Virus record (IMG/VR): IMGVR_UViG_3300023179_000156
Span: 1-51,141 of that record
DNA from: a virus
Lineage: Duplodnaviria; Caudoviricetes
Reading direction: 5' to 3' (one strand)
Length of the DNA: 51,141 bases
This document shows, in pieces, positions 19,465 through 39,505 of the stretch. The translations under genes and the position numbers were made by a program. The notes under the pieces are model-generated. The model made no database searches. It saw nothing but the letters and a program-made list of their open reading frames with translations, and was not told where the DNA came from. Every line of letters starts with the position of its first letter. The stretch's first letter is position 1.

Positions 19465-20588
19465 TGGCATCGATCAACGCGAACGTCACAAATCAGCAGA
19501 TCACGGCCAGCGTCGGCGAGACGCAGATTGATGTGAGCGTGTCTGGCGGCGTCGGCCCGACGGGCACGCCCGGCCCCGCCGCCACAATCACCGTCGGCAC
19601 CGTGACAACCGGTTCGCCGGGCTCGTCCGCGAGCGTGGTGAACGCTGGCACGACCTCGGCCGCGGTGCTGAACTTCACGATCCCGGCGGGGGCCACGGGC
19701 GCGACGGGCAGCACGGGACCGGCCGGCCCGGCGGGACCGCAAGGCCCGGCCGGCCCGGCCGGGACGACCGCGTGGGCTGACCTCACCGGGAAGCCGTCCA
19801 CGTTCGCGCCGTCTGCTCACACCCATGGCAACATCACGAACGACGGGCGACTGGGAACTACGAGCGGCCTAATCGTGGTCACTGGTCAGGGCGGCGCGAT
19901 CACAAGTGCTGCGACGATCACGGCAGCGGCCGTCTCGGTGTCGGATGAGTTCGAGCAAATATCCAACGACCCAGCCAACGTGTCAGAGGCGTTGATTGGC
20001 ATCGAGGCTGCGTTGGTAAACAAATCCGACAGCGCCCACGTTCACGGCAACATCACGAACGATGGGCAGTTGACGGGCGGGCAATACCAAAACGTCCTAA
20101 TCGTCGGAGAAGATGGATACATCGTCGCCACCGACACAATCGACGCTTCCGTAGTACACATAGACGGACTGTCCGATGTTGTATACACCGGCTCTTACAA
20201 CGACCTCGCCGACACTCCCGCCGCATTCGTGCTGCCAACCGCTTCAGCCACGGTGTCTGGCGGCGTCAAGATTGGCTCTGGCGTCACGATCACGAACGGC
20301 GTGATTTCGGTCGCCACCAACTACGCAGCGACCAGCCACACGCACGGCAACCTGACAAACGACGGGAAGATTGGCTCGACGAGCGGCCAGATTGTCGTGA
20401 CCACGACGGGTGGCGTTCTCACGACGGCCGCGACGATCAGCGCCTCGCAGGTCAGCGGCCTTGCGGCGTCCGCCACGACTGACGCGACGAACGCGAGCAA
20501 CATCAGCACCGGCACGCTCGCCATCGCTCGCCTGCCAGTTCGCGCCCGCGCCGCAATCAACGTCTTCAACTGGTCTTCCTTCCGTTAG
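19464..20588 (+). CDS. Fibre protein with collagen-like Gly-X-Y segment
   Basis: GATGATGSTGPAGPAGPQGPAG; 'W.DL.GKP'; three 'H.HGN(I/L)TNDG' repeats; 'GGVKIGSG'. Confidence 0.75.
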   Translation: MASINANVTNQQITASVGETQIDVSVSGGVGPTGTPGPAATITVGTVTTGSPGSSASVVNAGTTSAAVLNFTIPAGATGATGSTGPAGPAGPQGPAGPAGTTAWADLTGKPSTFAPSAHTHGNITNDGRLGTTSGLIVVTGQGGAITSAATITAAAVSVSDEFEQISNDPANVSEALIGIEAALVNKSDSAHVHGNITNDGQLTGGQYQNVLIVGEDGYIVATDTIDASVVHIDGLSDVVYTGSYNDLADTPAAFVLPTASATVSGGVKIGSGVTITNGVISVATNYAATSHTHGNLTNDGKIGSTSGQIVVTTTGGVLTTAATISASQVSGLAASATTDATNASNISTGTLAIARLPVRARAAINVFNWSSFR

Positions 20589-22287: not shown

Positions 22288-22595
22288 TGTTCGGCTGGCT
22301 GGCACGACGGGCCGACGACCTGTTCGGCCGCAGCGGGGCGTGGGCTCGCGTGCGGCGGGAGCATCTCCAGCGTGAGGCGGCGTGTGCGGCGTGCGGGAGG
22401 TCCGTCGACCTAGAGGTGCATCACATCCATCCGTACCACAAGCGGCCGGAACTGGAGTTGGACGATGGGAACCTGATAACCATGTGCCGCGACTGCCACC
22501 TGTCAGTGGCCCACGCCTACGACTGGAAGTCGCACCGGCCGCAAGTTCGCGACCTCGCCCGCGCGATTCGGTCGGCTACAGTAGTGCGCGGCTAA
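22287..22595 (+). CDS. HNH endonuclease
   Basis: CxxC...'LEVHHI'...'NLITMCRDCH'. Confidence 0.88.
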   Translation: MFGWLARRADDLFGRSGAWARVRREHLQREAACAACGRSVDLEVHHIHPYHKRPELELDDGNLITMCRDCHLSVAHAYDWKSHRPQVRDLARAIRSATVVRG

Positions 22596-23449
22596 CTGAC
22601 TTTTGGGAGGACGTCGGGGGCGCTGGCCCGCACGACGATCCTTGGGTCGAGATACTTGCGTGTGGTCTTGGGGTCGGAGTGATCAAGGATCGCCTGCGCG
22701 GACAGTCCGGCGGCCTCCGCGTATGACGCAGTGGTTTTCCGAATCTTGTGGAACTTGCACGTTCTGTCGGCCGGGAGGCCGGCGCGGCGGATGATGATGC
22801 CCAGGCGAGTCCAGAGATAGGACTTCATGCGCGGGAATGGAAACACCAGATCTTCGGCGGCTCGACCGCAGCGGATCTGATCCAGCGCCTCTTTGGTCTC
22901 TTGGCTGACGGCCCGCAGAATGTCTCGTCGACCGCCCTTGCGGTTCTCTGCGGAATAAAGAATCGTCGCCTCGCGAATGTCCCGCCACATCAGGGTCTTG
23001 ACGGCACCAACCCTTTCGCCAGTGTCGTAGCACACTAGCAAAAACGCGCGCCACCAGAGGGCCGCCGGGATGCCGTCATAGACTGCTGTCTCCATGCCGG
23101 CCGACTGCATAATCAGCCGCATCTCGTCGGACGTCCACGCCTCCGGCACGCGCTCCGGCACTTTGACGAGGCCGATCGTCGGCCACATATCAACCATACG
23201 CCTACGCGCCGCCAGTTCCCACATGGCGCGAAGTTGGCTCCGGTCCTTGGCGGCCGTGGCCGGCTTGCGCTCGCGGACGCGCTTGGCCAGAAACCGGGCT
23301 ACCTTGAGTTCCTCAAGGTCTGCGAGCGTCGGCTCGTGGCCGAGAGACTTGCCGAACTCCGAGATCGTGATTTTGTAGAGCGTCTCGGTGTGTTTGCAGA
23401 TGCCTTTGAGCGGGATGTAGATCTCTTGCAGAAAGTCAGTGAGTTTCAT
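22592..23449 (-). CDS. Tyrosine recombinase / phage integrase
   Basis: R (YDTGER), K (ENRKG), HxxR (FHKIR), LDH and Y (TTRKY) catalytic residues. Confidence 0.9.
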   Translation of the reverse strand: MKLTDFLQEIYIPLKGICKHTETLYKITISEFGKSLGHEPTLADLEELKVARFLAKRVRERKPATAAKDRSQLRAMWELAARRRMVDMWPTIGLVKVPERVPEAWTSDEMRLIMQSAGMETAVYDGIPAALWWRAFLLVCYDTGERVGAVKTLMWRDIREATILYSAENRKGGRRDILRAVSQETKEALDQIRCGRAAEDLVFPFPRMKSYLWTRLGIIIRRAGLPADRTCKFHKIRKTTASYAEAAGLSAQAILDHSDPKTTRKYLDPRIVVRASAPDVLPKVS

Positions 23450-31671: not shown

Positions 31672-31878
31672 CAAGAACCTTCCGTGCGACCTGGAGTACG
31701 TTGTCGTTGGCCAGTTTCTTGGCGACGGACTCTACAGAAACTTTGTCGGCTGGTTGAGGGACGGCGTCTGGTACGCCTACATACCGCACAACGAGCCGCA
31801 GCACGACTTCATGGCGGAAATGGGGGACGTCTGCGAGTTCGACTTCTGGATGCCTGTCAGCGACCCAGGGGATGAAAG

Positions 31879-32595
31879 ATGAACATCATCACCGGGGACT
31901 GCCTGGAAGTCATGCGGCGGCTGGCCGACGAAAGCGTCGACCTTATCCTGACCGACCCGCCCTACAACATCGGCGTCGACTACGGCGCAGGAAAGAAAGC
32001 CGACCTACGCGATGACTACGCCGAGTGGTGTCGCGAGTGGATCTCCCAGTGCCACCGGATCCTGTCGTCAACTGGGTCCCTATGGATCATCAGCGGCCAG
32101 GAGTACGGCGCCGAGATCGACCTGGGGATTCTGGCCGCCGGCTTCGCGATCAGGAACCGAATCACTTGGCACGAGACGTTCGGCGTCTATTGCCACAACA
32201 AGTTCGGACGCACGAGCCGGCCGATTTTCTACGCTGTCAAAGACCCCAAGAACTTCACGTTCAACAAGGATGCCGTGACCGTGCCGTCCGACCGCCAGAC
32301 CAAGTACGGCGACAAGCGCGCAGCAGCCGGCGGCAAGATCATGGGGGACGTTTGGACGATCAGTCGCGTGTGCGGGACTTTCAAAGAGCGAGTGAAGGGC
32401 GTCCCGACGCAACTTCCGTCCGAACTGGTGCGCCGCATCGTCGGCGTGTCGAGCAATCCCGGCGACACGGTCCTCGATATTTTCGCAGGCTCCGGCACGG
32501 TTTGTGCAGTTGCACAGGAAATGGGCCGGCATGGTGTCGGCATCGAACTCAATCCCGAATACGCGGAGATCGCACATGGACGCGGATCGGTCTGA
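31879..32595 (+). CDS. DNA amino-methyltransferase (N6A/N4C, beta class)
   Basis: DPPY motif before 'VLDIFAGSGT' SAM-binding motif. Confidence 0.92.
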   Translation: MNIITGDCLEVMRRLADESVDLILTDPPYNIGVDYGAGKKADLRDDYAEWCREWISQCHRILSSTGSLWIISGQEYGAEIDLGILAAGFAIRNRITWHETFGVYCHNKFGRTSRPIFYAVKDPKNFTFNKDAVTVPSDRQTKYGDKRAAAGGKIMGDVWTISRVCGTFKERVKGVPTQLPSELVRRIVGVSSNPGDTVLDIFAGSGTVCAVAQEMGRHGVGIELNPEYAEIAHGRGSV

Positions 32596-32794
32596 CTTCA
32601 GCGAAGAAGTGACGCTCGACAATGTCCTGCTCGCGATCGAGTCAACTCGCGGCGCTTTCGCGTTTGCGACCACGGCGATCGGCAAGGACAAGGGCGGGTC
32701 TGGCGTGGCGTTTGCCGGCAGGATGCTGGACGAGGCGCTTTCTGTCTTTCACGAGCAACTGGTTCAGTTCTTCAAAAAAAAGATGCAGGAGTAG
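32576..32794 (+). CDS. Hypothetical protein
   Basis: GGAG RBS; operon context. Confidence 0.5.
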   Translation: MDADRSDFSEEVTLDNVLLAIESTRGAFAFATTAIGKDKGGSGVAFAGRMLDEALSVFHEQLVQFFKKKMQE

Positions 32795-32799
32795 CACAG

Positions 32800-33000
32800 A
32801 TGCGCGCAACGCTGACGTTCCAGATCCCGGACGAAATCCAAGAGTTCAACGCCGCCATGGGCGGAGAGCAGTTGGCCGACCTGATGCGCCGCATTCAAGT
32901 TGCGTGCCAGGACGCCATTGATCACCCAGAGTCCGACGATGGCGAAATTCGCCTCGCCGAAGAGATCCTCGACGAAATCAGCGAGGCCGACATTGAGTGA
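32800..33000 (+). CDS. Hypothetical protein
   Basis: AGGAG RBS; acidic 66 aa. Confidence 0.6.
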   Translation: MRATLTFQIPDEIQEFNAAMGGEQLADLMRRIQVACQDAIDHPESDDGEIRLAEEILDEISEADIE

Positions 33001-33136
33001 GGACGCTAGCGATATTGGCTGTGTGCTTTCTGGCCGGAGTCGCCGTCGCGGCAGCGGTGTGCTGGAGCGAATCGCCGCCGAAGCCGGCCAGTTTTTTTGA
33101 ACCGCAACGCGGCGCAACATCCCAAAGTGACTGACC

Positions 33137-33517
33137 ATGCCGTGCAACAGTGACCATCTGCAATCGACGCGACTGGAGGTCGAGTGCAGCCGCATGTACC
33201 TCCTGCTCGATGAGTTGGACGGGAAAGGGCCTCCGGACCCGCAGTCTGGGGGCTGGGATGGCTACGACAAAAGGGCGTACAGCAAGCGGATAGATCGAGA
33301 ACTGGCCGACGAACTGACGGCGGAACTGTGCGAGCGAGTAAAGAAGATCAAAGACCTCACGAAACACTCGCTCGAACTGCAAGTGTGGGCCAGAGACCAC
33401 AGGATCGCCGACGCGAAGCGGAAGAAGCGAGAGGCTGCGGCGAAGCAGAAAGCAGCCGTTCGCAAGGAAGCGATGGCGAAGTTGACGCCGAAAGAGCGAA
33501 AGGCGCTGGGGTTGTGA
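33137..33517 (+). CDS. Hypothetical protein, paralog of 34924-35286
   Basis: Both start MPCNSDHLQ and end AKLTP.ERK.LGL. Confidence 0.8.
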   Translation: MPCNSDHLQSTRLEVECSRMYLLLDELDGKGPPDPQSGGWDGYDKRAYSKRIDRELADELTAELCERVKKIKDLTKHSLELQVWARDHRIADAKRKKREAAAKQKAAVRKEAMAKLTPKERKALGL

Positions 33518-33543
33518 GAACACGGCATCGCGGGAGAAGTGAA

Positions 33544-33813
33544 ATGGACGTTGTGACACGCATCAGCCGCTGGTTGGAAGAAGAGGACGCAGACGACGCA
33601 GGCAAGACGCTCCGCGACGCCCGCGAGGAGATTATCTCGCTGCGAGCGAAGGTCGCAGACTCAACGGAGTCTCTGATGAAGGCCATAAAAATCATCTCCG
33701 AAACTTCGCGCCGCGCTGGCTATTGCGAGGGAACGCTGATGATGATCCGCATCGGGCATCCCTGTCCTGAGTCGGCGGCTGCTGCGGCGCTTAAGGAAAT
33801 CGGTCGTGACTGA
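33544..33813 (+). CDS. Hypothetical protein
   Basis: GGAG RBS; 'MD.V.R...L..AR.EI..LR' phage small-protein pattern. Confidence 0.55.
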   Translation: MDVVTRISRWLEEEDADDAGKTLRDAREEIISLRAKVADSTESLMKAIKIISETSRRAGYCEGTLMMIRIGHPCPESAAAAALKEIGRD

Positions 33814-33979
33814 AGAATCGAAACCGTCGGCCGAGCAACTCAAGCCGCCGTCCTACTACCGCGACCCGAGGCCGACGTTGACCGACGAGGAGCGGGAGGC
33901 GATTGCCTACTACATCGGGACGGGCGGGCCGGATCGGGTGGACGCCGCGCTCCGCGACCTACTGGAGCGGTTGAACTGA
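33806..33979 (+). CDS. Hypothetical protein (LTDEEREAI...LRDLLERL), paralog of 34607-34834
   Basis: 57-aa ORF not in track; shared motifs with 34607 ORF. Confidence 0.65.
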   Translation: MTEESKPSAEQLKPPSYYRDPRPTLTDEEREAIAYYIGTGGPDRVDAALRDLLERLN

Positions 33980-34026
33980 GAATGCCAGCGATCAGCGGCT
34001 CCGTCCGCTGCATCGCGTGGTTCTGT
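33977..34026 (-). mobile_element. attC-like site A (short, degenerate R box)
   Basis: + strand AAT-6-GATCAGCGG...T CCGCTGCATC-5-GTT; two unpaired bases. Confidence 0.7.
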
Positions 34027-34043
34027 GATCGCAGGAGAGAGGC

Positions 34044-34274
34044 ATGAAATCTGTGTGCGGCAGGTGCGGGAGCGAAGGCGAAACCGGGTGGTACGCCTCG
34101 TCTAGGTCGATGCCGTACAGCGGCGAGACCGTTGTCGCGTGGGATCAGCAGCGGGGCATTCCAAGAGTGTTGAAGTGGGACAACGGAAAATGGTTGACGG
34201 CCAAGGGGAAGACGATTCGTTGCTGGAGAATCACGCATTGGTTTCCGGTGTCGGGGCCAGCGGGTTACGCATAG
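34044..34274 (+). CDS. Cassette gene, DUF551-like hypothetical protein
   Basis: 'W.....MP' and 'ITHWFP' motifs; between sites A and B. Confidence 0.6.
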   Translation: MKSVCGRCGSEGETGWYASSRSMPYSGETVVAWDQQRGIPRVLKWDNGKWLTAKGKTIRCWRITHWFPVSGPAGYA

Positions 34275-34276
34275 CC

Positions 34277-34367
34277 ACAGAACGCCCGCGATCACCAGCG
34301 GCGAGGAGAAGACGATGACTGAAACGAACGACACTGCCGAGCCGACTGGTGCATCAGGTGGTTCTCA
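34277..34367 (-). mobile_element. attC-like site B (contains RBS and ATG 34315)
   Basis: AAC-6-GATCACCAG CGGC...GCCG A CTGGTGCATC-5-GTT. Confidence 0.85.
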
Positions 34368-34566
34368 CCGGCTTGCGTTTGTTGCTGATGCCGCGAGGTT
34401 GGCTGCACTCATGTCCTGCCTACTGACTACTCAAGTGCGGTGGAACCTTGACAACTGGCGCACCCATTGGCCCTTTGCGTGGGTGAACGTCAGCGGCGTG
34501 ACGCAAGTTGAGGTGTATGTGCCGCCCAGAGGAATGGCAATCGTCCGGCTGAACTGGATGGAGTGA
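34315..34566 (+). CDS. Cassette gene, hypothetical protein starting inside site B
   Basis: AGGAG and ATG in loop; stop TGA within next R box. Confidence 0.6.
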   Translation: MTETNDTAEPTGASGGSHRLAFVADAARLAALMSCLLTTQVRWNLDNWRTHWPFAWVNVSGVTQVEVYVPPRGMAIVRLNWME

Positions 34567-34642
34567 GAACACGGAAGATCAACGGCGGCCACCGGAGGAC
34601 TCAACCATGACACATGACGTAGCAGGGCCGTCCGTTGCTCAC
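34564..34642 (-). mobile_element. attC-like site C (apparent 12-bp deletion in right arm)
   Basis: Nearly identical to site F but lacks ATCGGCTGGTTC. Confidence 0.75.
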
Positions 34643-34834
34643 AATACGTCAATGGCTGTGGCCAGACTGTCGGCGGCGAACACATGGCTACAGGAGGAAA
34701 TCAAGCGGCTGCGGCTGACCGACGCGGAGCGGGAGGCGATTGCGGATGCAGCCGGCAGGTACGTCGAAGGAATAACGCCGAAGGCAAAAGAGCACGCCTC
34801 CACGCTGCGCGGCCTGCTGGAACGGCTAGGCTGA
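34607..34834 (+). CDS. Cassette gene, hypothetical protein starting inside site C
   Basis: GGAGG and ATG in loop; 'LTDAEREAI...LRGLLERL'. Confidence 0.7.
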   Translation: MTHDVAGPSVAHNTSMAVARLSAANTWLQEEIKRLRLTDAEREAIADAAGRYVEGITPKAKEHASTLRGLLERLG

Positions 34835-34920
34835 GAACGCCAAAGATCAGCGGCTCCCGGCCACTGATTCACCAACTTGAACGGCGGATACCGGGAGTCC
34901 GCTGCATCGCGTGGTTCGCA
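34832..34920 (-). mobile_element. attC-like site D
   Basis: AAC-6-GATCAGCGG CTCCCGG...CCGGGAG T CCGCTGCATC-5-GTT. Confidence 0.88.
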
Positions 34921-34923
34921 AAT

Positions 34924-35286
34924 ATGCCGTGCAACTCTGACCACCTTCAGGCGACACACCTTGAGTCGGAGATGAGCAAGGTCGCGTGCCTTCTTGACGA
35001 GTTGAATGGAAAGAAGCGGATAAACCAAGACCACTGGCGCGGCTATCACCCTAGCGTCTACAGCCAGCGATTCAATGCAGACGAGATGACGGCCGAACTA
35101 TGCTCGCGCCTCCAGGGAATGGACGTTTCAAAATGCAGCCTTGAGATGCAGATTTGGTGGCGCGACCATCAGGCGGCAGACAAGGCGCGAGCCGAGAAAG
35201 CGATCAAGAAGGCCAAGACCGAGAAGCAGAAGAAAGCGGCACTTGCGAAACTTACTCCGCATGAGCGGAAACTGCTGGGGCTTTGA
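34924..35286 (+). CDS. Cassette gene, paralog of 33137-33517
   Basis: End-to-end similarity to the 33137 ORF. Confidence 0.8.
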   Translation: MPCNSDHLQATHLESEMSKVACLLDELNGKKRINQDHWRGYHPSVYSQRFNADEMTAELCSRLQGMDVSKCSLEMQIWWRDHQAADKARAEKAIKKAKTEKQKKAALAKLTPHERKLLGL

Positions 35287-35290
35287 CGTT

Positions 35291-35379
35291 TGCGAACACG
35301 GCAGATCAACGGCGGCCACCGGAGGATTCACCATGACGAAAGACGTAGCGGGGCCGTCCGTTGCATCGGCTGGTTCTGT
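35291..35379 (-). mobile_element. attC-like site E (RBS and ATG 35333 for a 28-aa peptide)
   Basis: AAC-6-GATCAACGG CGGCC...GGCCG T CCGTTGCATC-5-GTT. Confidence 0.88.
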
Positions 35380-35517
35380 AGAATGCGGACAATCCCCTCA
35401 AGGGGCTTGTAAATCCTGAATGGACAGGTCTTCGGGAGTTGATCGCCCGATGTTCCCGCCACACCTCTGTTGCTGCGGCACAAGTGCAATCGGGCGGGCC
35501 ATCGAACAGAGGAAATC

Positions 35518-35796
35518 ATGAGCGAGCCACGTTGGATACCAGTGACTGAACGCTTGCCCGAAGAGGAGCAGGACGTTCTTTTTGTTGTGGACGACGGCGT
35601 GAGGGTTGAAGGGCTGATGTTCTCTGGCTGGTACGAGAAGGGTAATTTCTGGGAACACGCACCGGATGGCGAGCAATACGCCAACAACATTGGAGGATAC
35701 GAAGGCGTTCACTTCTGGTCGCCAATACCAAGCCGGTCGGAACTGTTCAAAGACAAGCCGCCAAGGAACGGACGGCATCGGTGGGCGGAGAAGTGA
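35518..35796 (+). CDS. Cassette gene, DUF551-like hypothetical protein
   Basis: 'WIPVTERLPE...VLF' and 'V.FWSPIP' motifs. Confidence 0.7.
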   Translation: MSEPRWIPVTERLPEEEQDVLFVVDDGVRVEGLMFSGWYEKGNFWEHAPDGEQYANNIGGYEGVHFWSPIPSRSELFKDKPPRNGRHRWAEK

Positions 35797-35803
35797 CTTT
35801 CCT

Positions 35804-35892
35804 ACAGAACACGGAAGATCAACGGCGGCCACCGGAGGATTCACCATGACACATGACGTAGCAGGGCCGTCCGTTGCATCGGCTGGTTCTCT
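35804..35892 (-). mobile_element. attC-like site F (RBS and ATG 35846)
   Basis: Same architecture as site E, near-identical sequence. Confidence 0.88.
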
Positions 35893-36115
35893 ATCTACCG
35901 GCTGGATTGTTGAGACTCACAAGACGTGGAACGGCGAGCCGAACTGGTGGAGAAACGGACACGGGTGGATGAAGACCCTCCGTCAGGCGACGGTGTTCGT
36001 AAAAAAGAACTCCGCGATCAGTAAATGCGTTCAGTTGGGAAGCGGAGTTTGCACGGTGCGGGAAATCAGTTTTTCGACAGGGCGGGCCGTTTACCCGCCG
36101 TCGCGAACGGAATAG
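35846..36115 (+). CDS. Cassette gene, hypothetical protein starting inside site F
   Basis: MTHDVAGPSVASAGS N-terminus encoded by the site; stop overlaps next R box. Confidence 0.65.
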   Translation: MTHDVAGPSVASAGSLSTGWIVETHKTWNGEPNWWRNGHGWMKTLRQATVFVKKNSAISKCVQLGSGVCTVREISFSTGRAVYPPSRTE

Positions 36116-36204
36116 AGAACACGCGAGATGAGCGGCATCGCCACGGAGGACGATGATATGACGAAAGACGCTGCGGCGATGTCCGCTCCATCGGCTGGTT
36201 CTCT
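36114..36204 (-). mobile_element. attC-like site G (RBS and ATG 36158)
   Basis: AAC-6-GATGAGCGG CATCGCC...GGCGATG T CCGCTCCATC-5-GTT. Confidence 0.88.
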
Positions 36205-37003
36205 CCCGCTGGATCAGATCATCTGCGGGGATAACTGCGAAGTGATGCGACAGATGCCGAGCGAGTCGATTGACCTCGTGGTGACTTCACCGCCTTACGA
36301 CGACCTTCGCACCTACGGCGGCCACTCGTGGGACTTCTACGGGGTGGCGTGGAATCTCAAGCGGCTGCTGAAGCCGGGCGGGGTGATTGTGTGGGTGGTG
36401 AACGATGCGACGAAGGACGGGAGCGAGACTGGCAGCTCAATGCGGCAGGCGCTGCACTTCCAAGGGATCGGGCTGAACCTGCACGACACGATGATTTATC
36501 ACAGAACAGGACCATACCCGGACACGGTTAGGTATTGGGCTTCTTTTGAATACATGCTCATTCTGAGCAACGGGAAGCCGCGTTCAGTCAATCTGATTCG
36601 AGACAAAAAGAACGCGACCGGAGGAACAAAGGCGACAAGGCCGAAACTCAACCGCCAAAAGAATGGCGCGATGCCGGACTATCAAGGCAGGGAGCGGACT
36701 AGGCACGCTTTTGGTGTCAGGGAAAACGTCTGGAGGATTAACGCCGGAGGCGGTGTTAGCACGAAAGACGCAGTAGCGTTTCAGCATCCCGCGATCTTTC
36801 CAGAAGCCCTGGCCCGCGACCACATACTCTCGTGGAGCAACCCTGGCGACGTGGTGCTTGACCCGTTCAGCGGCAGCGGCACCACGGCGAAGATGGCCCG
36901 AGAGGCAGGGCGGCGGTTCATCGGGATCGAGGTGAATCCGGAGTACGTGGAGATCAGCAGGAAACGGCTGGCACAGCAGGCGCTGCCGATGGGCGTGGCG
37001 TAG
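36158..37003 (+). CDS. Cassette-borne DNA amino-methyltransferase (SPPY, beta class)
   Basis: 'TSPPY', 'HPAIFP', 'VLDPFSGSGTT' motifs. Confidence 0.92.
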   Translation: MTKDAAAMSAPSAGSLPLDQIICGDNCEVMRQMPSESIDLVVTSPPYDDLRTYGGHSWDFYGVAWNLKRLLKPGGVIVWVVNDATKDGSETGSSMRQALHFQGIGLNLHDTMIYHRTGPYPDTVRYWASFEYMLILSNGKPRSVNLIRDKKNATGGTKATRPKLNRQKNGAMPDYQGRERTRHAFGVRENVWRINAGGGVSTKDAVAFQHPAIFPEALARDHILSWSNPGDVVLDPFSGSGTTAKMAREAGRRFIGIEVNPEYVEISRKRLAQQALPMGVA

Positions 37004-37006
37004 TGG

Positions 37007-37102
37007 AGAGAACCATGATTATGCGGAATCCTCGCCGCCTAATTCGGCAGAAACCCGCGTTTCGCGGCCGAACGGCGCGGGGATGACGGTGTTATGCGGA
37101 AT
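37007..37102 (-). mobile_element. Terminal atypical site H (attI-like candidate)
   Basis: R box complementary to the MTase cassette start; 11-bp direct repeat TTATGCGGAAT at 37019 and 37092; no attC L boxes. Confidence 0.55.
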
Positions 37103-37138
37103 AGGTCGCTTTGCTCGCAGCCGAGCCCAGAGGAATAA

Positions 37139-37402
37139 ATGTCCATCAGAGACGCGTTCGACGAGTCCGGCTTGACAATGGCGGAGTTCGTCATCGGCAC
37201 TGTTTCGCTGTTTCTGATCTGTGCCACCGTCATCGCGGGGGCCGCGTGGATTTGCAGGGAGATCGCGACCGCAAATGACGGAAGAATCTCGCGGTCTCCG
37301 TTTGCGGTGACATTTGAACACGACGGACACAGGTTCGTTCGCGCTCCGGGAGGATCCATGTTGCACCATCCAGATTGCCCATGTCACAAAAAGGAGAAAT
37401 GA
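37139..37402 (+). CDS. Membrane-anchored hypothetical protein
   Basis: TM helix; 'EHDGH.F' and 'HHPDCPC' terminus. Confidence 0.65.
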   Translation: MSIRDAFDESGLTMAEFVIGTVSLFLICATVIAGAAWICREIATANDGRISRSPFAVTFEHDGHRFVRAPGGSMLHHPDCPCHKKEK

Positions 37403-37725
37403 TGCGTAAGTCCATCGACGTTCCGCTTCTGTTCAAACTCTGGCACACGGAACTCAAGAACGACGAACTGGCGTCCAGGATCGGCGTCGCGAGGGGCCAC
37501 CTGTGGTATCTGCGGCAGAAATACGGGCTCCCCGAGCGGAAAAAGCGCCGCACGCGGCCTCCATCGGACGACCCGACTCCGGAGGAGATAGCAGAGCGCT
37601 GTGCCGAAGTGAGGCGCGGATGGTCTGCAGAGGAGGAAGCGAGGAGACTGTGCGGCAAGCCGGCCCGCTGGAGGCCGCCCCAGTACCACAAGTTCGACCC
37701 AAAAACCATGACTTTTTCGTGTTGA
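37399..37725 (+). CDS. HTH-like hypothetical protein with 'PTPEEI..RCAEVRRGW' motif
   Basis: AGGAG RBS; motif shared with 39489 ORF. Confidence 0.65.
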   Translation: MMRKSIDVPLLFKLWHTELKNDELASRIGVARGHLWYLRQKYGLPERKKRRTRPPSDDPTPEEIAERCAEVRRGWSAEEEARRLCGKPARWRPPQYHKFDPKTMTFSC

Positions 37726-37758
37726 CACAGAGGCTACAGGGCCACACACTAGGGCTTC

Positions 37759-38037
37759 ATGCTTGAGAGAACAATCGTCGCGAAGGTGATCGCAACGGCG
37801 AAGTCGCTGGGGTGGTTCGCTGTCAAAATCCACGGCAACGCCTACCAGATGGCTGGGCTCCCGGACGTCCTGTGCATCAAGGGCGGGCGGGCAGTGTGGA
37901 TGGAGGCGAAGGTTCCAGGAAACGAGCCGAGCCCGATCCAAGCGCGCCGCATGAAGGAACTGGCCGCGGCCGGGTGTCCGTGTGCCGTGGTGTTTTCGGA
38001 CAAGGACGCGAGAAAGTTCCTGGAGGAGTGCGTGTAA
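37759..38037 (+). CDS. VRR-NUC / PD-(D/E)xK nuclease
   Basis: 'E..I...V', 'GLPD', 'MEAK', 'SPIQ' motifs. Confidence 0.85.
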   Translation: MLERTIVAKVIATAKSLGWFAVKIHGNAYQMAGLPDVLCIKGGRAVWMEAKVPGNEPSPIQARRMKELAAAGCPCAVVFSDKDARKFLEECV

Positions 38038-38661
38038 ATGGAGGAATCTTTCCTGGAGCCCCTGCAGAAAAGCCTCGTCCGCGGCCCCTGCCGCGTCGCC
38101 GTTGACATCGGCGCCAACGACGGCGAGTGGACGCTGTGGCTGGCCGAGAGGTTTGACCACGTTCTGGCCCTGGAGCCAGACCCCCGCGCGGCAAAGAAAC
38201 TGCGCGGCGCCCTGCCGGCCAATGCCACGCTGATCGAGGCCGCCTGCTGCCCGGAGGCCGGTGTTGCCGACTTCTACTTGCGCGAAAACCCAGACCAGTC
38301 ATCCATTCTGCCAGAGCATCCGATCGGCTGCGCTGACCAGCGCGAAGCCCCAGTGCAGTCAAAGTCGACCGTCAACGCCATGACGATGGACGGGATTCTT
38401 GACGCCGCGCGCAGTCTTTTTGGCTGCGACGAGATCGACTTCGTGAAACTGGACATCGAGGGCGCAGAGCATTTGGCCATGAACAGCGCCACGCCGTCCC
38501 TGTTCAGAAACACTCGCTGGCTCGTGGAGGTTCACGACAACCGGGTCGAGGTCGGCGCGGCTGTTCGCAGGCTGGGCCACGAAGACCTGCAGATCGTCAA
38601 TCATCCGCATCCAGGCGCCCACCCAAACCACCTCTGGATCCTTGTCAATGAATCCCGATGA
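38038..38661 (+). CDS. FkbM-family SAM methyltransferase
   Basis: 'VDIGANDG', 'LEP', 'IDFVKLDIEGAE', 'VEVH' motifs. Confidence 0.88.
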   Translation: MEESFLEPLQKSLVRGPCRVAVDIGANDGEWTLWLAERFDHVLALEPDPRAAKKLRGALPANATLIEAACCPEAGVADFYLRENPDQSSILPEHPIGCADQREAPVQSKSTVNAMTMDGILDAARSLFGCDEIDFVKLDIEGAEHLAMNSATPSLFRNTRWLVEVHDNRVEVGAAVRRLGHEDLQIVNHPHPGAHPNHLWILVNESR

Positions 38662-39505
38662 CTACTGGAAGATCGAGCCGGCGTACCAAAAGCAGTACGA
38701 CAAGTTCGTGGACATGGGGCGTGCTGTCGCGGCGGACGCCAAACTCTGCGTGCTTTCCATCGCCCGCAACGCGATGCCGTGCCTGGAAAATACGCTTCCA
38801 CTGCTGGAGCAGGCCGTCGCGCCATTTCGCGAGGTCAAGTATTACGTCTATGAGAACGACTCCACGGACGGGACTGATCAAGTCCTTGACGAGTTCGCGT
38901 CGAATCGCCCGTGGGTGACAGTTGAACACGCGTCCCTCGGGAGGCCGGACCTACGGGGCTTTGAGGAGGACAGGACGATCGCCCTGGCCGAATACCGCAA
39001 CCGCTGCCGGCTGTGGGCAGCGGCCAACGCCGCAGGCTTTGGGTTTTTCGCCGTCCTTGATACAGACCCGATGGGCGGGTTTTCCCCAGGCGGCCTGCTC
39101 AACAGCGTCGGCTGGCTGTCGCACTATGCCAGCGACACGAGGAAAACACCCGCTGGAATGGCCAGCCTGTCGCTTTACGCCGAACTGGGAGACGAAGGGG
39201 AACTGCGGCTTGCGCAGTACGACGCTTGGGCGGCGAGGCTGAATTGGTGGGACGACCGGCGAGACAATAGGTGGTTTCACGCGTTGCTTCCGCCAGTCGG
39301 CAGCGAGCCGATTCCGATGAACTCTGCATTCGGCGGCCTGACGGTCTACCGCCGCGAAGCGTTCCTGGCCGCCGGCGTCGAGTACGTCGGCGGCGATTGC
39401 GAACACGTTGCCATGCACCGCGCCATGCACCGCGCCGGATTCCAGATGTATCTCAACCCTGGGTGCCGGTACGCCGCCGTGATTCCCAATGCCGTCTCCT
39501 CGTAA
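38648..39505 (+). CDS. GT-A glycosyltransferase-like protein
   Basis: 'YENDSTDGT', 'LAEYRN', 'VLDTD', 'SAFGGL.VY', 'DCEHV' motifs. Confidence 0.8.
   Translation: MNPDDYWKIEPAYQKQYDKFVDMGRAVAADAKLCVLSIARNAMPCLENTLPLLEQAVAPFREVKYYVYENDSTDGTDQVLDEFASNRPWVTVEHASLGRPDLRGFEEDRTIALAEYRNRCRLWAAANAAGFGFFAVLDTDPMGGFSPGGLLNSVGWLSHYASDTRKTPAGMASLSLYAELGDEGELRLAQYDAWAARLNWWDDRRDNRWFHALLPPVGSEPIPMNSAFGGLTVYRREAFLAAGVEYVGGDCEHVAMHRAMHRAGFQMYLNPGCRYAAVIPNAVSS

Follow-up and report, generated by a model that had tools for sequence, protein, structure and literature searches.

A probable integron-type cassette array, with an attI-like terminal site and no integrase, in the genome of a tailed phage

The cassette locus and its hairpin sites

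The virus record IMGVR_UViG_3300023179_000156 (IMG/VR; Caudoviricetes), which was analyzed over its whole length of 51,141 bases and is called the window here, is a single contig of a tailed phage estimated to be ~90% complete. It probably represents a lake-water phage, and its hosts are probably planctomycete bacteria. The genome encodes a major head protein (25–1002), tail proteins, an exonuclease, an SNF2 helicase, a Prim-Pol, a UvrD-type helicase, two DNA methyltransferases, and a VRR-NUC-type endonuclease. Inside this genome, between the replication genes and a conserved right-hand block, the plus strand carries at 33980–37102 a row of seven hairpin sites, each followed by one small gene, and then a terminal site of another kind. 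Our analysis indicates that the row is very likely a genuine integron-type cassette array of the attC family found in the Pirellulales, with an attI-type site, without an integrase, and with a polarity that is the mirror image of the classical one. It appears likely that the locus as a whole, seven cassettes and an attI-type site, constitutes an integron platform served by the integrase (IntI) of the host.

A first-pass annotation of the window had described seven imperfect palindromes between small genes and had read them as attC sites; all seven are present on the plus strand (33980–36201), and none occurs elsewhere in the 51-kb genome. Read along that strand and given in coordinates from NAAC to GTTN, a site consists of NAAC, six unpaired nucleotides, 3 bp, a 6-bp box, a distal stem, a loop, the distal stem again, an unpaired T, the complementary box, an unpaired C, 3 bp, five unpaired nucleotides, and GTTN. 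The anatomy proposed earlier, with 6 nt after AAC, 5 nt before GTT, and two unpaired bases in the right arm, is borne out: the two bulges are T (occasionally A or C) and, beyond the 6-nt box, an invariant C, both on the 3′ arm of the plus strand. In every intact site the unpaired spacer is 6 nt long in the 5′ arm and 5 nt long in the 3′ arm, and the loop sequence is variable; an unpaired central spacer and a variable terminal loop are defining features of attC sites. Site lengths fall into two ranges, 43–50 and 82–85 nt. AAC and GTT are invariant across 42 aligned sites from the window and from viral contigs, and within the window they are found in all sites but two.

Both exceptions lie in the left part of the row. 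Site 1 (33980–34023) is a short form of 44 nt that has no long loop and reads AAT instead of AAC, and site 3 (34567 to ~34641) is truncated, keeping its left arm, its loop, and most of its right arm, with the last 12 nt including GTT replaced. The others are site 2 (34280–34364; 85 nt), site 4 (34835–34917; 83 nt, with no ATG in its loop), site 5 (35294–35376; 83 nt), site 6 (35807–35889; 83 nt), and site 7 (36117–36201; 85 nt). Site 1 looks like site 4 minus its inner 39 nt, and short sites of 43–52 nt without the long loop make up 28 of 133 distinct phage sites; below 75 nt there are 29 of 133 (one of them 62 nt), compared with 9 of 399 sites at bacterial genome loci.

A covariance model of the site family, built from the sites of the window and of the viral contigs (R1) and run with filters off on both strands, returned exactly the seven sites, all on the plus strand, with E-values from 2.6e-22 to 3.8e-10; the only match outside them in the whole window was a junk match at E 0.88. 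The scores of sites 1 to 7 were 44.0 (E 3.8e-10), 77.4, 44.1, 78.0, 84.9, 86.6, and 79.0 bits. By a strict pattern that requires complementary boxes, six of the seven are intact, all on the plus strand and all in the array region, and a sequence-independent structural detector found the five intact long sites on the plus strand and none on the minus strand. When plus-strand sites were folded as single strands and compared with shuffles, four of seven had z-scores below −2.6 (including site 1 at −3.26, site 5 at −3.13, and site 7 at −2.87), and the other three lay at about −1.1 to −1.5. Across the 42 nonidentical sites of the alignment, 95.9% of the cells in paired positions were paired, against 82.5% in shuffles (none of 500 as high) and 22–48% with slid partners, and 9 of 14 upper-helix pairs change on both sides. 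Pairing of the 6-bp box was part of the way in which sites were selected; the distal stem was not, and it covaries too. This covariation, together with the strand and place specificity of the sites, rules out chance palindromes or terminators. Terminator-like sites stand at background (8 found, 6.1 expected), a search for a sigma-70-like promoter found none, and a scan of 33000–37600 against Rfam gave just three chance-level matches below the gathering scores and no family match.

Each unit follows the same order on the plus strand: it begins with the C of one NAAC, continues through the hairpin to GTT and four to six specific bases, then through one small gene, and closes with the complement of those bases and the AA of the next NAAC. 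The seven cassettes bounded in this way are 33983–34282, 34283–34569, 34570–34837, 34838–35296, 35297–35809, 35810–36119, and 36120–37012. The gene of cassette 1 (34044–34274; 76 amino acids, aa) starts after site 1 and lies between the cassette ends GTTCTGTG and CACAGAAC; neither it nor the gene of cassette 2 (34315–34566; 83 aa), whose predicted start is an ATG within the site 2 loop, has a Pfam or PHROG match. In cassette 3 the reading frame (34607–34834; 75 aa) begins within the site 3 loop and is a fusion across the decayed right arm of that site. Cassette 4 encodes a protein of 120 aa (34924–35286) belonging to phrog_11759, of unknown function (PHROG E 2.1e-30), and cassette 5 a DUF551 protein of 92 aa (35518–35796; Pfam PF04448, E 6.4e-06) whose start lies outside the site; the site 5 loop does contain an ATG, but this opens only a 28-aa frame (35333–35419). 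For the gene of cassette 6 (35846–36115; 89 aa), which has no family match, the predicted start is an ATG within the site 6 loop. Cassette 7 carries a 281-aa N6/N4 DNA methyltransferase (36158–37003; Pfam PF01555, E 1e-41; phrog_67, E 5.2e-62), for which in-frame ATG, GTG, or TTG starts upstream of the domain lie only inside site 7. The cargo had been described as DUF551-like proteins and a DNA methyltransferase; the methyltransferase is there, and by Pfam and PHROG only one of the seven cargo genes is DUF551-like.

The two ends of a cassette pair with each other across the gene. All six complementary end pairs listed in the first-pass annotation are present, and the seventh unit, after truncated site 3, has no complementary ends. 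In 41 nonidentical units drawn from the window and from viral contigs, complementarity beyond GTTN extends over 3.98 bases on average, compared with 1.51 for noncognate ends and 1.61 for the two flanks of one site, and none of 10,000 permutations reached 3.98; in 104 units delimited by model-based site calls the mode is 4. Counted from GTT, the run averages 4.73 in phage units (n = 88; noncognate 1.70), 4.14 in genome units (n = 279), and 5.13 in units adjacent to an integron integrase gene, intI (n = 15), with noncognate values of 0.9–1.7 overall. Its mode is 5 in phage and intI-adjacent host units alike, and the 88 phage units hold 32 distinct 5-mers. The fourth base, which makes the ends GTTC/GAAC or GTTA/TAAC, covaries across the unit (78 C-G and 17 A-T against 5 discordant; Fisher 5e-15 over the four main cells), whereas the two ends of one site are independent (p 0.57). 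Because the fourth base covaries across units and not within sites, only AAC and GTT are the conserved part and everything beyond them belongs to the gene unit; the bases beyond AAC/GTT are the composite R box of integron cassettes. The TAAC/GTTA core coexists with GAAC/GTTC in the same arrays both in viral stretches (L006, L010, L015, L018, L019, L031, L038, L044, L056, L067, and L071) and in hosts (L228 and L229), the variant base going with the cassette and not with the site.

Chromosomal counterparts, the terminal junction, and polarity

Viral contigs were scanned with a pattern derived from sites 5 and 6, which gave 51 stretches holding 121 sites by R1, and with the phage helicase, which gave 56 relatives holding 52. 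Altogether at least 62 sources including the window carry sites, with 180 R1 matches, and the largest numbers are 15 in L056 and 8 each in L033 and L039. A degenerate pattern drawn from the invariant columns matched at least 120 stretches of bacterial genomes; among the 80 matches listed, 74 bear planctomycete names, 3 other names, and 3 no name. The integron integrase model TIGR02249 gave matches above its 265-bit cutoff in Stieleria magnilauensis, Stieleria bergensis, and Neorhodopirellula pilleata (396, 316, 400, 362, and 315 bits), and no control genome passed. R1 sites form an array 5′ of intI and on the strand of intI in five of five cases near a TIGR02249 match, namely four of these matches (400, 396, 362, and 316 bits) and a fragment in Thalassoglobus neptunius; the 315-bit match is the second in N. 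pilleata, and no R1 site is listed beside it. In S. magnilauensis, 14 sites are spaced by open reading frames on the opposite strand. Position 5′ of intI on its strand, with opposite-strand reading frames, is the classical integron layout if the strand recognized by R1 is the bottom strand.

The host sites match those of the phage in anatomy, in their length mode of 83–85 nt (~84), and in the cassette rule, including TAAC/GTTA. They covary strongly: 94.2% of cells are paired against 69.0%, and both sides change in 13 of 16 upper-helix pairs. In the reciprocal direction, a model built only from 26 intI-adjacent sites of two Stieleria species (R2) found six of the seven window sites, again only on the plus strand, with E-values of 6e-07 (site 1), 2.6e-10 (site 2), 1.3e-14 (site 4; 58.5 bits, the best R2 match in the window), 5.9e-11 (site 5), 4.6e-09 (site 6), and 1.5e-09 (site 7); it matched truncated site 3 weakly and in part (E 0.28) and nothing else below E 0.02. 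Judged by these features, the phage sites belong to the attC family of chromosomal integrons of the Pirellulales (Planctomycetota). The attC identity proposed at first reading is supported by the cores, the bulges, the spacer, and the composite R box, and by membership in a family that stands beside true intI genes on Stieleria chromosomes. The same site pattern also occurs on contigs of metagenome-assembled genomes binned to anammox planctomycetes (L123 and L160, Candidatus Kuenenia) and, rarely, to other phyla (L137 and L156, Chitinophagaceae; L143, Bdellovibrionaceae), which may be misbinned phage contigs or may reflect a wider host range.

The array ends in a conserved junction that does not have the hairpin form of the attC sites. 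The last cassette closes with a terminal R-box half at 37005–37013, GGAGAGAAC, which is complementary to GTTCTCTCC after site 7. Behind it, at 37014–37102 on the plus strand, lie a 5-nt spacer, an 11-nt box (37019–37029) directly repeated 73 nt on (37092–37102), and a G+C-rich imperfect hairpin between the two copies. The same arrangement follows the last cassette in about 30 distinct viral junctions, most of which have an inverted box pair and a third copy. In three Stieleria arrays, the stretch that joins the last cassette to intI resembles the phage terminal site: among the three host junctions compared, the one of S. bergensis (L229) matches the commonest phage junction type in 13 of the first 14 nt after AAC, and a second phage type resembles the junction of the second S. 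magnilauensis integron. The terminal site sits at the end of the array where attI is expected from the polarity of the sites, and by position and sequence it is a candidate attI-type site. A third type of terminal site, a spacer with a palindrome of ~30 nt, follows the last cassette in L087 (~20125–20200) and in L011, and the window shares part of it (37040–37055).

The plus strand is the bottom strand of the attC sites, and each site belongs to the gene downstream of it. This assignment follows from the bulges on the 3′ arm of the plus strand and from the host arrays, which place the strand recognized by R1 on the strand of intI, and the homology breakpoints described below fit it. Recombination had been placed at G|TT in the first-pass annotation, which is right for the minus strand; read on the plus (bottom) strand, this puts the crossover at AA|C, on the left edge of a site, and the site travels with the gene downstream. 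The direction in which sites and genes are coupled rests on two alignments (L039 with L056, and cassette 4 with L087), on the bulge geometry, and on the orientation of intI in hosts.

All seven cassette genes lie on the plus, or bottom, strand with attC upstream, and not in the canonical polarity of a top-strand reading frame with attC downstream; the Pfam and PHROG matches of cassettes 4, 5, and 7 confirm genes on the plus strand. In helicase relatives, 51 of 52 R1 matches are co-oriented with the helicase. The genes of four cassettes (2, 3, 6, and 7) are predicted to start at an ATG in the attC loop. A loop ATG that opens at least 60 codons is found in 80 of 104 distinct long phage sites, 67 of them with a Shine–Dalgarno-like 4-mer, compared with 30 of 390 sites at genome loci (Fisher 6e-45), some of which may be prophages, and with none of 23 sites in three arrays adjacent to intI. 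A test by the longest open frame points the same way, with the site strand longer in 57 phage units against 26 and the opposite strand longer in 193 genome units against 73; this test is noisy in G+C-rich DNA, so the orientation rests on the start-codon count and the family matches.

Variation among relatives and the question of recombination

The first-pass annotation had supposed that the phage shuffles its accessory genes as mobile cassettes, and the comparison of the locus among related phages agrees with this as far as gene content goes: cassette content is variable inside conserved flanks, and cassette homology ends at AAC. Recombination by a host IntI enters the argument as a proposal. 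In three phages whose helicases are 89–97% identical to that of the window (L053, L054, and L061), the flanks align at 77–88%, and the stretch from ~33517 to 37294–37393 is replaced by 1.1–1.9 kb of other genes, with one site in L053, none in L054, and one in L061; in L056 (helicase 86% identical) the corresponding gap holds 15 sites. A 302-bp unit is 99% identical in L039 and L056 among unrelated neighbors, and it is shared from inside the upstream site, just after the left spacer, to the downstream GAAC. Cassette 4 has a counterpart in L087 (helicase identity only 43%), which shares its upstream site and its gene, at 90% protein identity, and the nucleotide sequences diverge at AAC on both sides. 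In L087 this unit is the last cassette before the terminal site.

Four sequencing runs were searched as contigs, so that stretches without cover, such as cassettes 4 and 6 in run X4, are not evidence of absence. In X4, a freshwater run from another study, a 372-nt contig joins 35805 to 34566 with no mismatch and puts the DUF551 cassette directly before cassette 3, which could reflect another cassette order, a duplication, or a circle. The contigs of run X1, which is probably the source run, break at the sites, where depth reaches 350–570 (33966–34126, 34771–34931, and 35737–35897) against ~25 in the genes; sites of this kind are therefore common to many genomes of the lake-water community. At most X1 joints the sides are under 40 nt long with 90% likeness; their probable origin is other phages with sites in common.

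The left flank of the array holds further traces of cassettes. Directly upstream of site 1 lies a 57-aa gene (33806–33979, plus strand) that is a paralog of the cassette 3 gene and lacks an intact site of its own; through direct repeats D5 and D7, this gene and the start of site 1 are connected with 34707–34857. Farther upstream, a remnant of the left end of a site (33518–33527, plus strand), GAAC with its 6-nt spacer in the letters of site 5 and with no hairpin behind it, directly follows the stop of gene 33137–33517. The latter gene is a paralog of the cassette 4 gene and occupies the same place in L053, L054, and L061; it looks like a former cassette fixed in the backbone. At the other end, homologs of the cassette methyltransferase (~68% identical) stand behind a site in L002, L025, and L032; two of these contigs, L002 and L025, likewise have it as their last cassette, and its specific end bases ahead of the terminal site are those of the window. 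The methyltransferase cassette may have long resided at the entry-proximal position and not have arrived recently. The phage has a second N6_N4 DNA methyltransferase in its backbone (31879–32595), and an FkbM-type methyltransferase lies at 38038–38661. Searches of named phage records by blastn with 31800–38700 and with one site retrieved methyltransferase fragments only and no relative of the array.

A single recombinase was found in the genome, an Xer-like tyrosine recombinase of 285 aa (22592–23449, minus strand) that lies 10.5 kb from the array, with a PF00589 match (E 1.8e-09), only weak Xer matches in NCBIfam, and no TIGR02249 match. Of the loci of 56 relatives, 47 contain a syntenic homolog, and in 32 of these 47 the sequence examined has no site. 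Since the homologs stand at the same place regardless of sites, the enzyme looks like the integrase or resolvase of the phage family; as the cassette enzyme it was rejected for this absence of association with arrays. A complete integron has, next to its array, an intI gene for a tyrosine recombinase with the IntI-specific insertion; no intI adjoins this array, and seven sites in 51 kb with no intI nearby make the locus a cluster of attC sites lacking an integrase (CALIN), which by definition has at least two attC sites. A search of viral contigs with a Stieleria IntI as query found no relative, but its reach is confined to close relatives, so the result is no evidence of absence. Since the genome has no intI and the Xer-like protein is a syntenic core gene, we infer that a host IntI acts in trans.

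On the explanation that we favor, IntI of a planctomycete host would act on the array during infection or lysogeny, fold and cut the plus (bottom) strand, and excise cassettes as circles at AA|C. The circles would insert at the attI-type site of a phage, and phages of the group would exchange accessory genes in this way. Because the cassette genes lie on the bottom strand, they would be transcribed together with the plus-strand genes of the phage, and the attC loop would usually supply the ribosome-binding site and start codon of its own gene. We think it somewhat more likely than not that a host IntI still moves the cassettes. We see even chances for and against a wider picture, in which phages of Planctomycetota keep a private mirror-image integron without an integrase, borrow the IntI of the host, and trade accessory, probably antidefense, genes as a separate phage-format pool, the attC hairpin having been co-opted as a portable translation-start module that expresses any cassette where it lands.

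Several observations weigh against this explanation. No TIGR02249 match at E 0.01 exists in the whole ~90%-complete genome, and no recombination event was observed directly in the runs, which were searched as contigs. The X4 joint is ambiguous over 34 shared bases, so that homologous recombination between near-identical sites 3 and 6 or a tandem duplication could have produced it. In L053 and L061, the closest helicase relatives, the gap contains a single site and lacks anything attI-like. Decay affects the left part of the array, as seen in truncated site 3, in short site 1 with its AAT, and in the bare remnant at 33518. Among 10 homologous pairs, the gene keeps its upstream site in 6 and its downstream site in 4, which is not significant (p 0.32); a DNA-level version of the test gave 4 against 1 of 8. 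The bases after GTT read GTTC(T) and so depart from the GTTRRRY consensus; host sites deviate likewise. The training sites of R2 were located with R1, which makes the test reciprocal and not fully independent. Assignment of the host to Pirellulales, which we infer from the site family and from head-protein relatives, is qualified by the distance of these relatives: they are only 43–44% identical in two genomes, and 7 of 301 genomes match at E 1e-20. Finally, any recombination inside the sites, homologous recombination included, keeps the end pairing, and the pairing therefore shows past or present selection and not current activity.

The last of these points leads to the alternative that the array is a fossil, made of true attC sites by descent in which no site-specific recombination is left, with the differences between phages produced by homologous recombination between 83-nt sites and by deletion. 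We consider this unlikely. It would agree with a phage that has no intI, with the visible decay at the left end, and with an X4 joint that falls within shared bases, and sites 3, 5, and 6, which are 92–97% alike, could support homologous exchange; as a point of logic, such exchange inside sites leaves the end pairing intact. However, without selection in a folded circle the end pairing and the covariation of the fourth base should decay, and yet the fourth base covaries across units and the phage ends pair as far as those of intI-adjacent host units (4.73 and 5.13, with a mode of 5 in both). Since phage end pairing is as good as that of the hosts, it can be argued that the folded circular form is still under selection, which is no proof of current activity. 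In addition, an attI-like site has been kept at the array end in about 30 distinct junctions, and homology between phages still ends at AAC where their sites are diverse.

Two further alternatives were considered. That the enzyme is the phage's 285-aa Xer-like protein (22592–23449) or host XerCD, and not an integron integrase, strikes us as very unlikely. The protein is the sole recombinase found in the genome, the terminal box may resemble an Xer-binding arm, and folded single-stranded Xer substrates are known from filamentous phages; against this, 32 of the 47 loci with a homolog lack sites, TIGR02249 gives no signal, and true intI genes in hosts stand next to sites of this family and to a terminal junction of like kind. 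It is extremely unlikely that the hairpins are RNA-level elements only, serving translation starts or processing, with a convergent likeness to attC. They do fold as RNA with a ribosome-binding site and an AUG in the loop, and a loop start codon is present in 80 of 104 phage sites; but the same family occurs in host arrays with genes on the other strand and with loops that lack starts (0 of 23), the pairing of flanks across a gene and the covariation of the fourth base have no apparent explanation at the RNA level, and Rfam gives no match. An added RNA role of the hairpins in phages is compatible with the cassette explanation and forms part of it.

Relation to known integrons and phage arrays

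Integrons are known as bacterial gene-capture devices, and clusters of attC sites in phages have been reported just as rare, small finds. Here a whole phage lineage has what appears to be an integron platform at a fixed hot spot, with at least 62 stretches that carry sites and one that carries 15. It corresponds to the host attC type re-engineered in three ways, with no integrase, with inverted genes, and with starts inside the recombination site. If a host IntI serves the array, phages would have in it a means of shuffling accessory genes, methyltransferases among them, at the resolution of single cassettes, and it would be a natural case of a DNA recombination site doubling as a signal for mRNA translation. 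Its cassette format would then be a second one, which standard surveys assuming top-strand genes would misannotate.

The nearest published cases are those of Qi et al. 2023 (Qi, Rajabal, Ghaly, Tetu, and Gillings; PMC9892861), whose main text reports 3 complete integrons, one In0, and 17 CALINs from 10,705 phage genomes of the National Center for Biotechnology Information (NCBI), recombination of five of six phage attC sites by IntI1, and methyltransferase cassettes. As described there, the phage CALINs share with the window at least two attC sites with cassettes, the lack of intI, a methyltransferase cargo, and the idea that a cassette pool is open to phages. The array of the window differs in having seven sites and a candidate attI-type site at a family-wide hot spot, with up to 15 sites in a relative, and in being wholly inverted, whereas the two typical arrays presented in that article are co-oriented like bacterial arrays. 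Its main text contains no planctomycete phages, no attI in CALIN phages, no inverted genes, and no starts inside attC, and its supplementary tables, which list all 17 CALINs, could include relevant phages. A full-text literature search likewise found no planctomycete phage integron array, no inverted phage cassettes, no attC start codons, and no attI-type site in a phage array without intI. Phage CALINs are already known; what is new here, as not found in print, is the candidate attI-type site, the inversion of the genes, and the embedded starts.

Stem-loop linker repeats that flank shuffled small genes occur in other phages as promoter-early stem-loops (T4-type phages) and as start-associated sequences (cluster K mycobacteriophages). 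Like the sites of the window, they are repeated hairpins between small accessory genes, in a hypervariable region and near translation starts; they are not known to have AAC/GTT cores, fixed bulges, flanks that pair across a gene, or a counterpart adjacent to an integrase in host chromosomes.

The attC sites of mobile integrons, as described by Larouche and Roy 2011 (PMC3053210), resemble those of the phage in the folded bottom strand, in two extrahelical bases on the same side six apart, and in a crossover in the R box. Their R box follows GTTRRRY, whereas phage sites read GTTC(T/G), and their usual extrahelical pattern is T-N6-G, both bases on one side. The second bulge is invariantly C in phage sites, a base that is rare in classical attC sites, with blaVIM-2 the only example named in that article; T-N6-C sites are reported there to be recombined by IntI1, IntI3, IntI2*179E, and SonIntIA. 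The sedentary chromosomal integrons of S. magnilauensis and S. bergensis (Pirellulaceae) share with the phage array attC length, cores, spacer, T-N6-C bulges, and R-box pairing, and have a similar junction between the last cassette and the attI region. They differ in having intI next to attI, cassette genes on the top strand, and attC loops without starts (0 of 23), whereas the phage array has no intI, genes on the bottom strand, starts in the loops, and many short sites.

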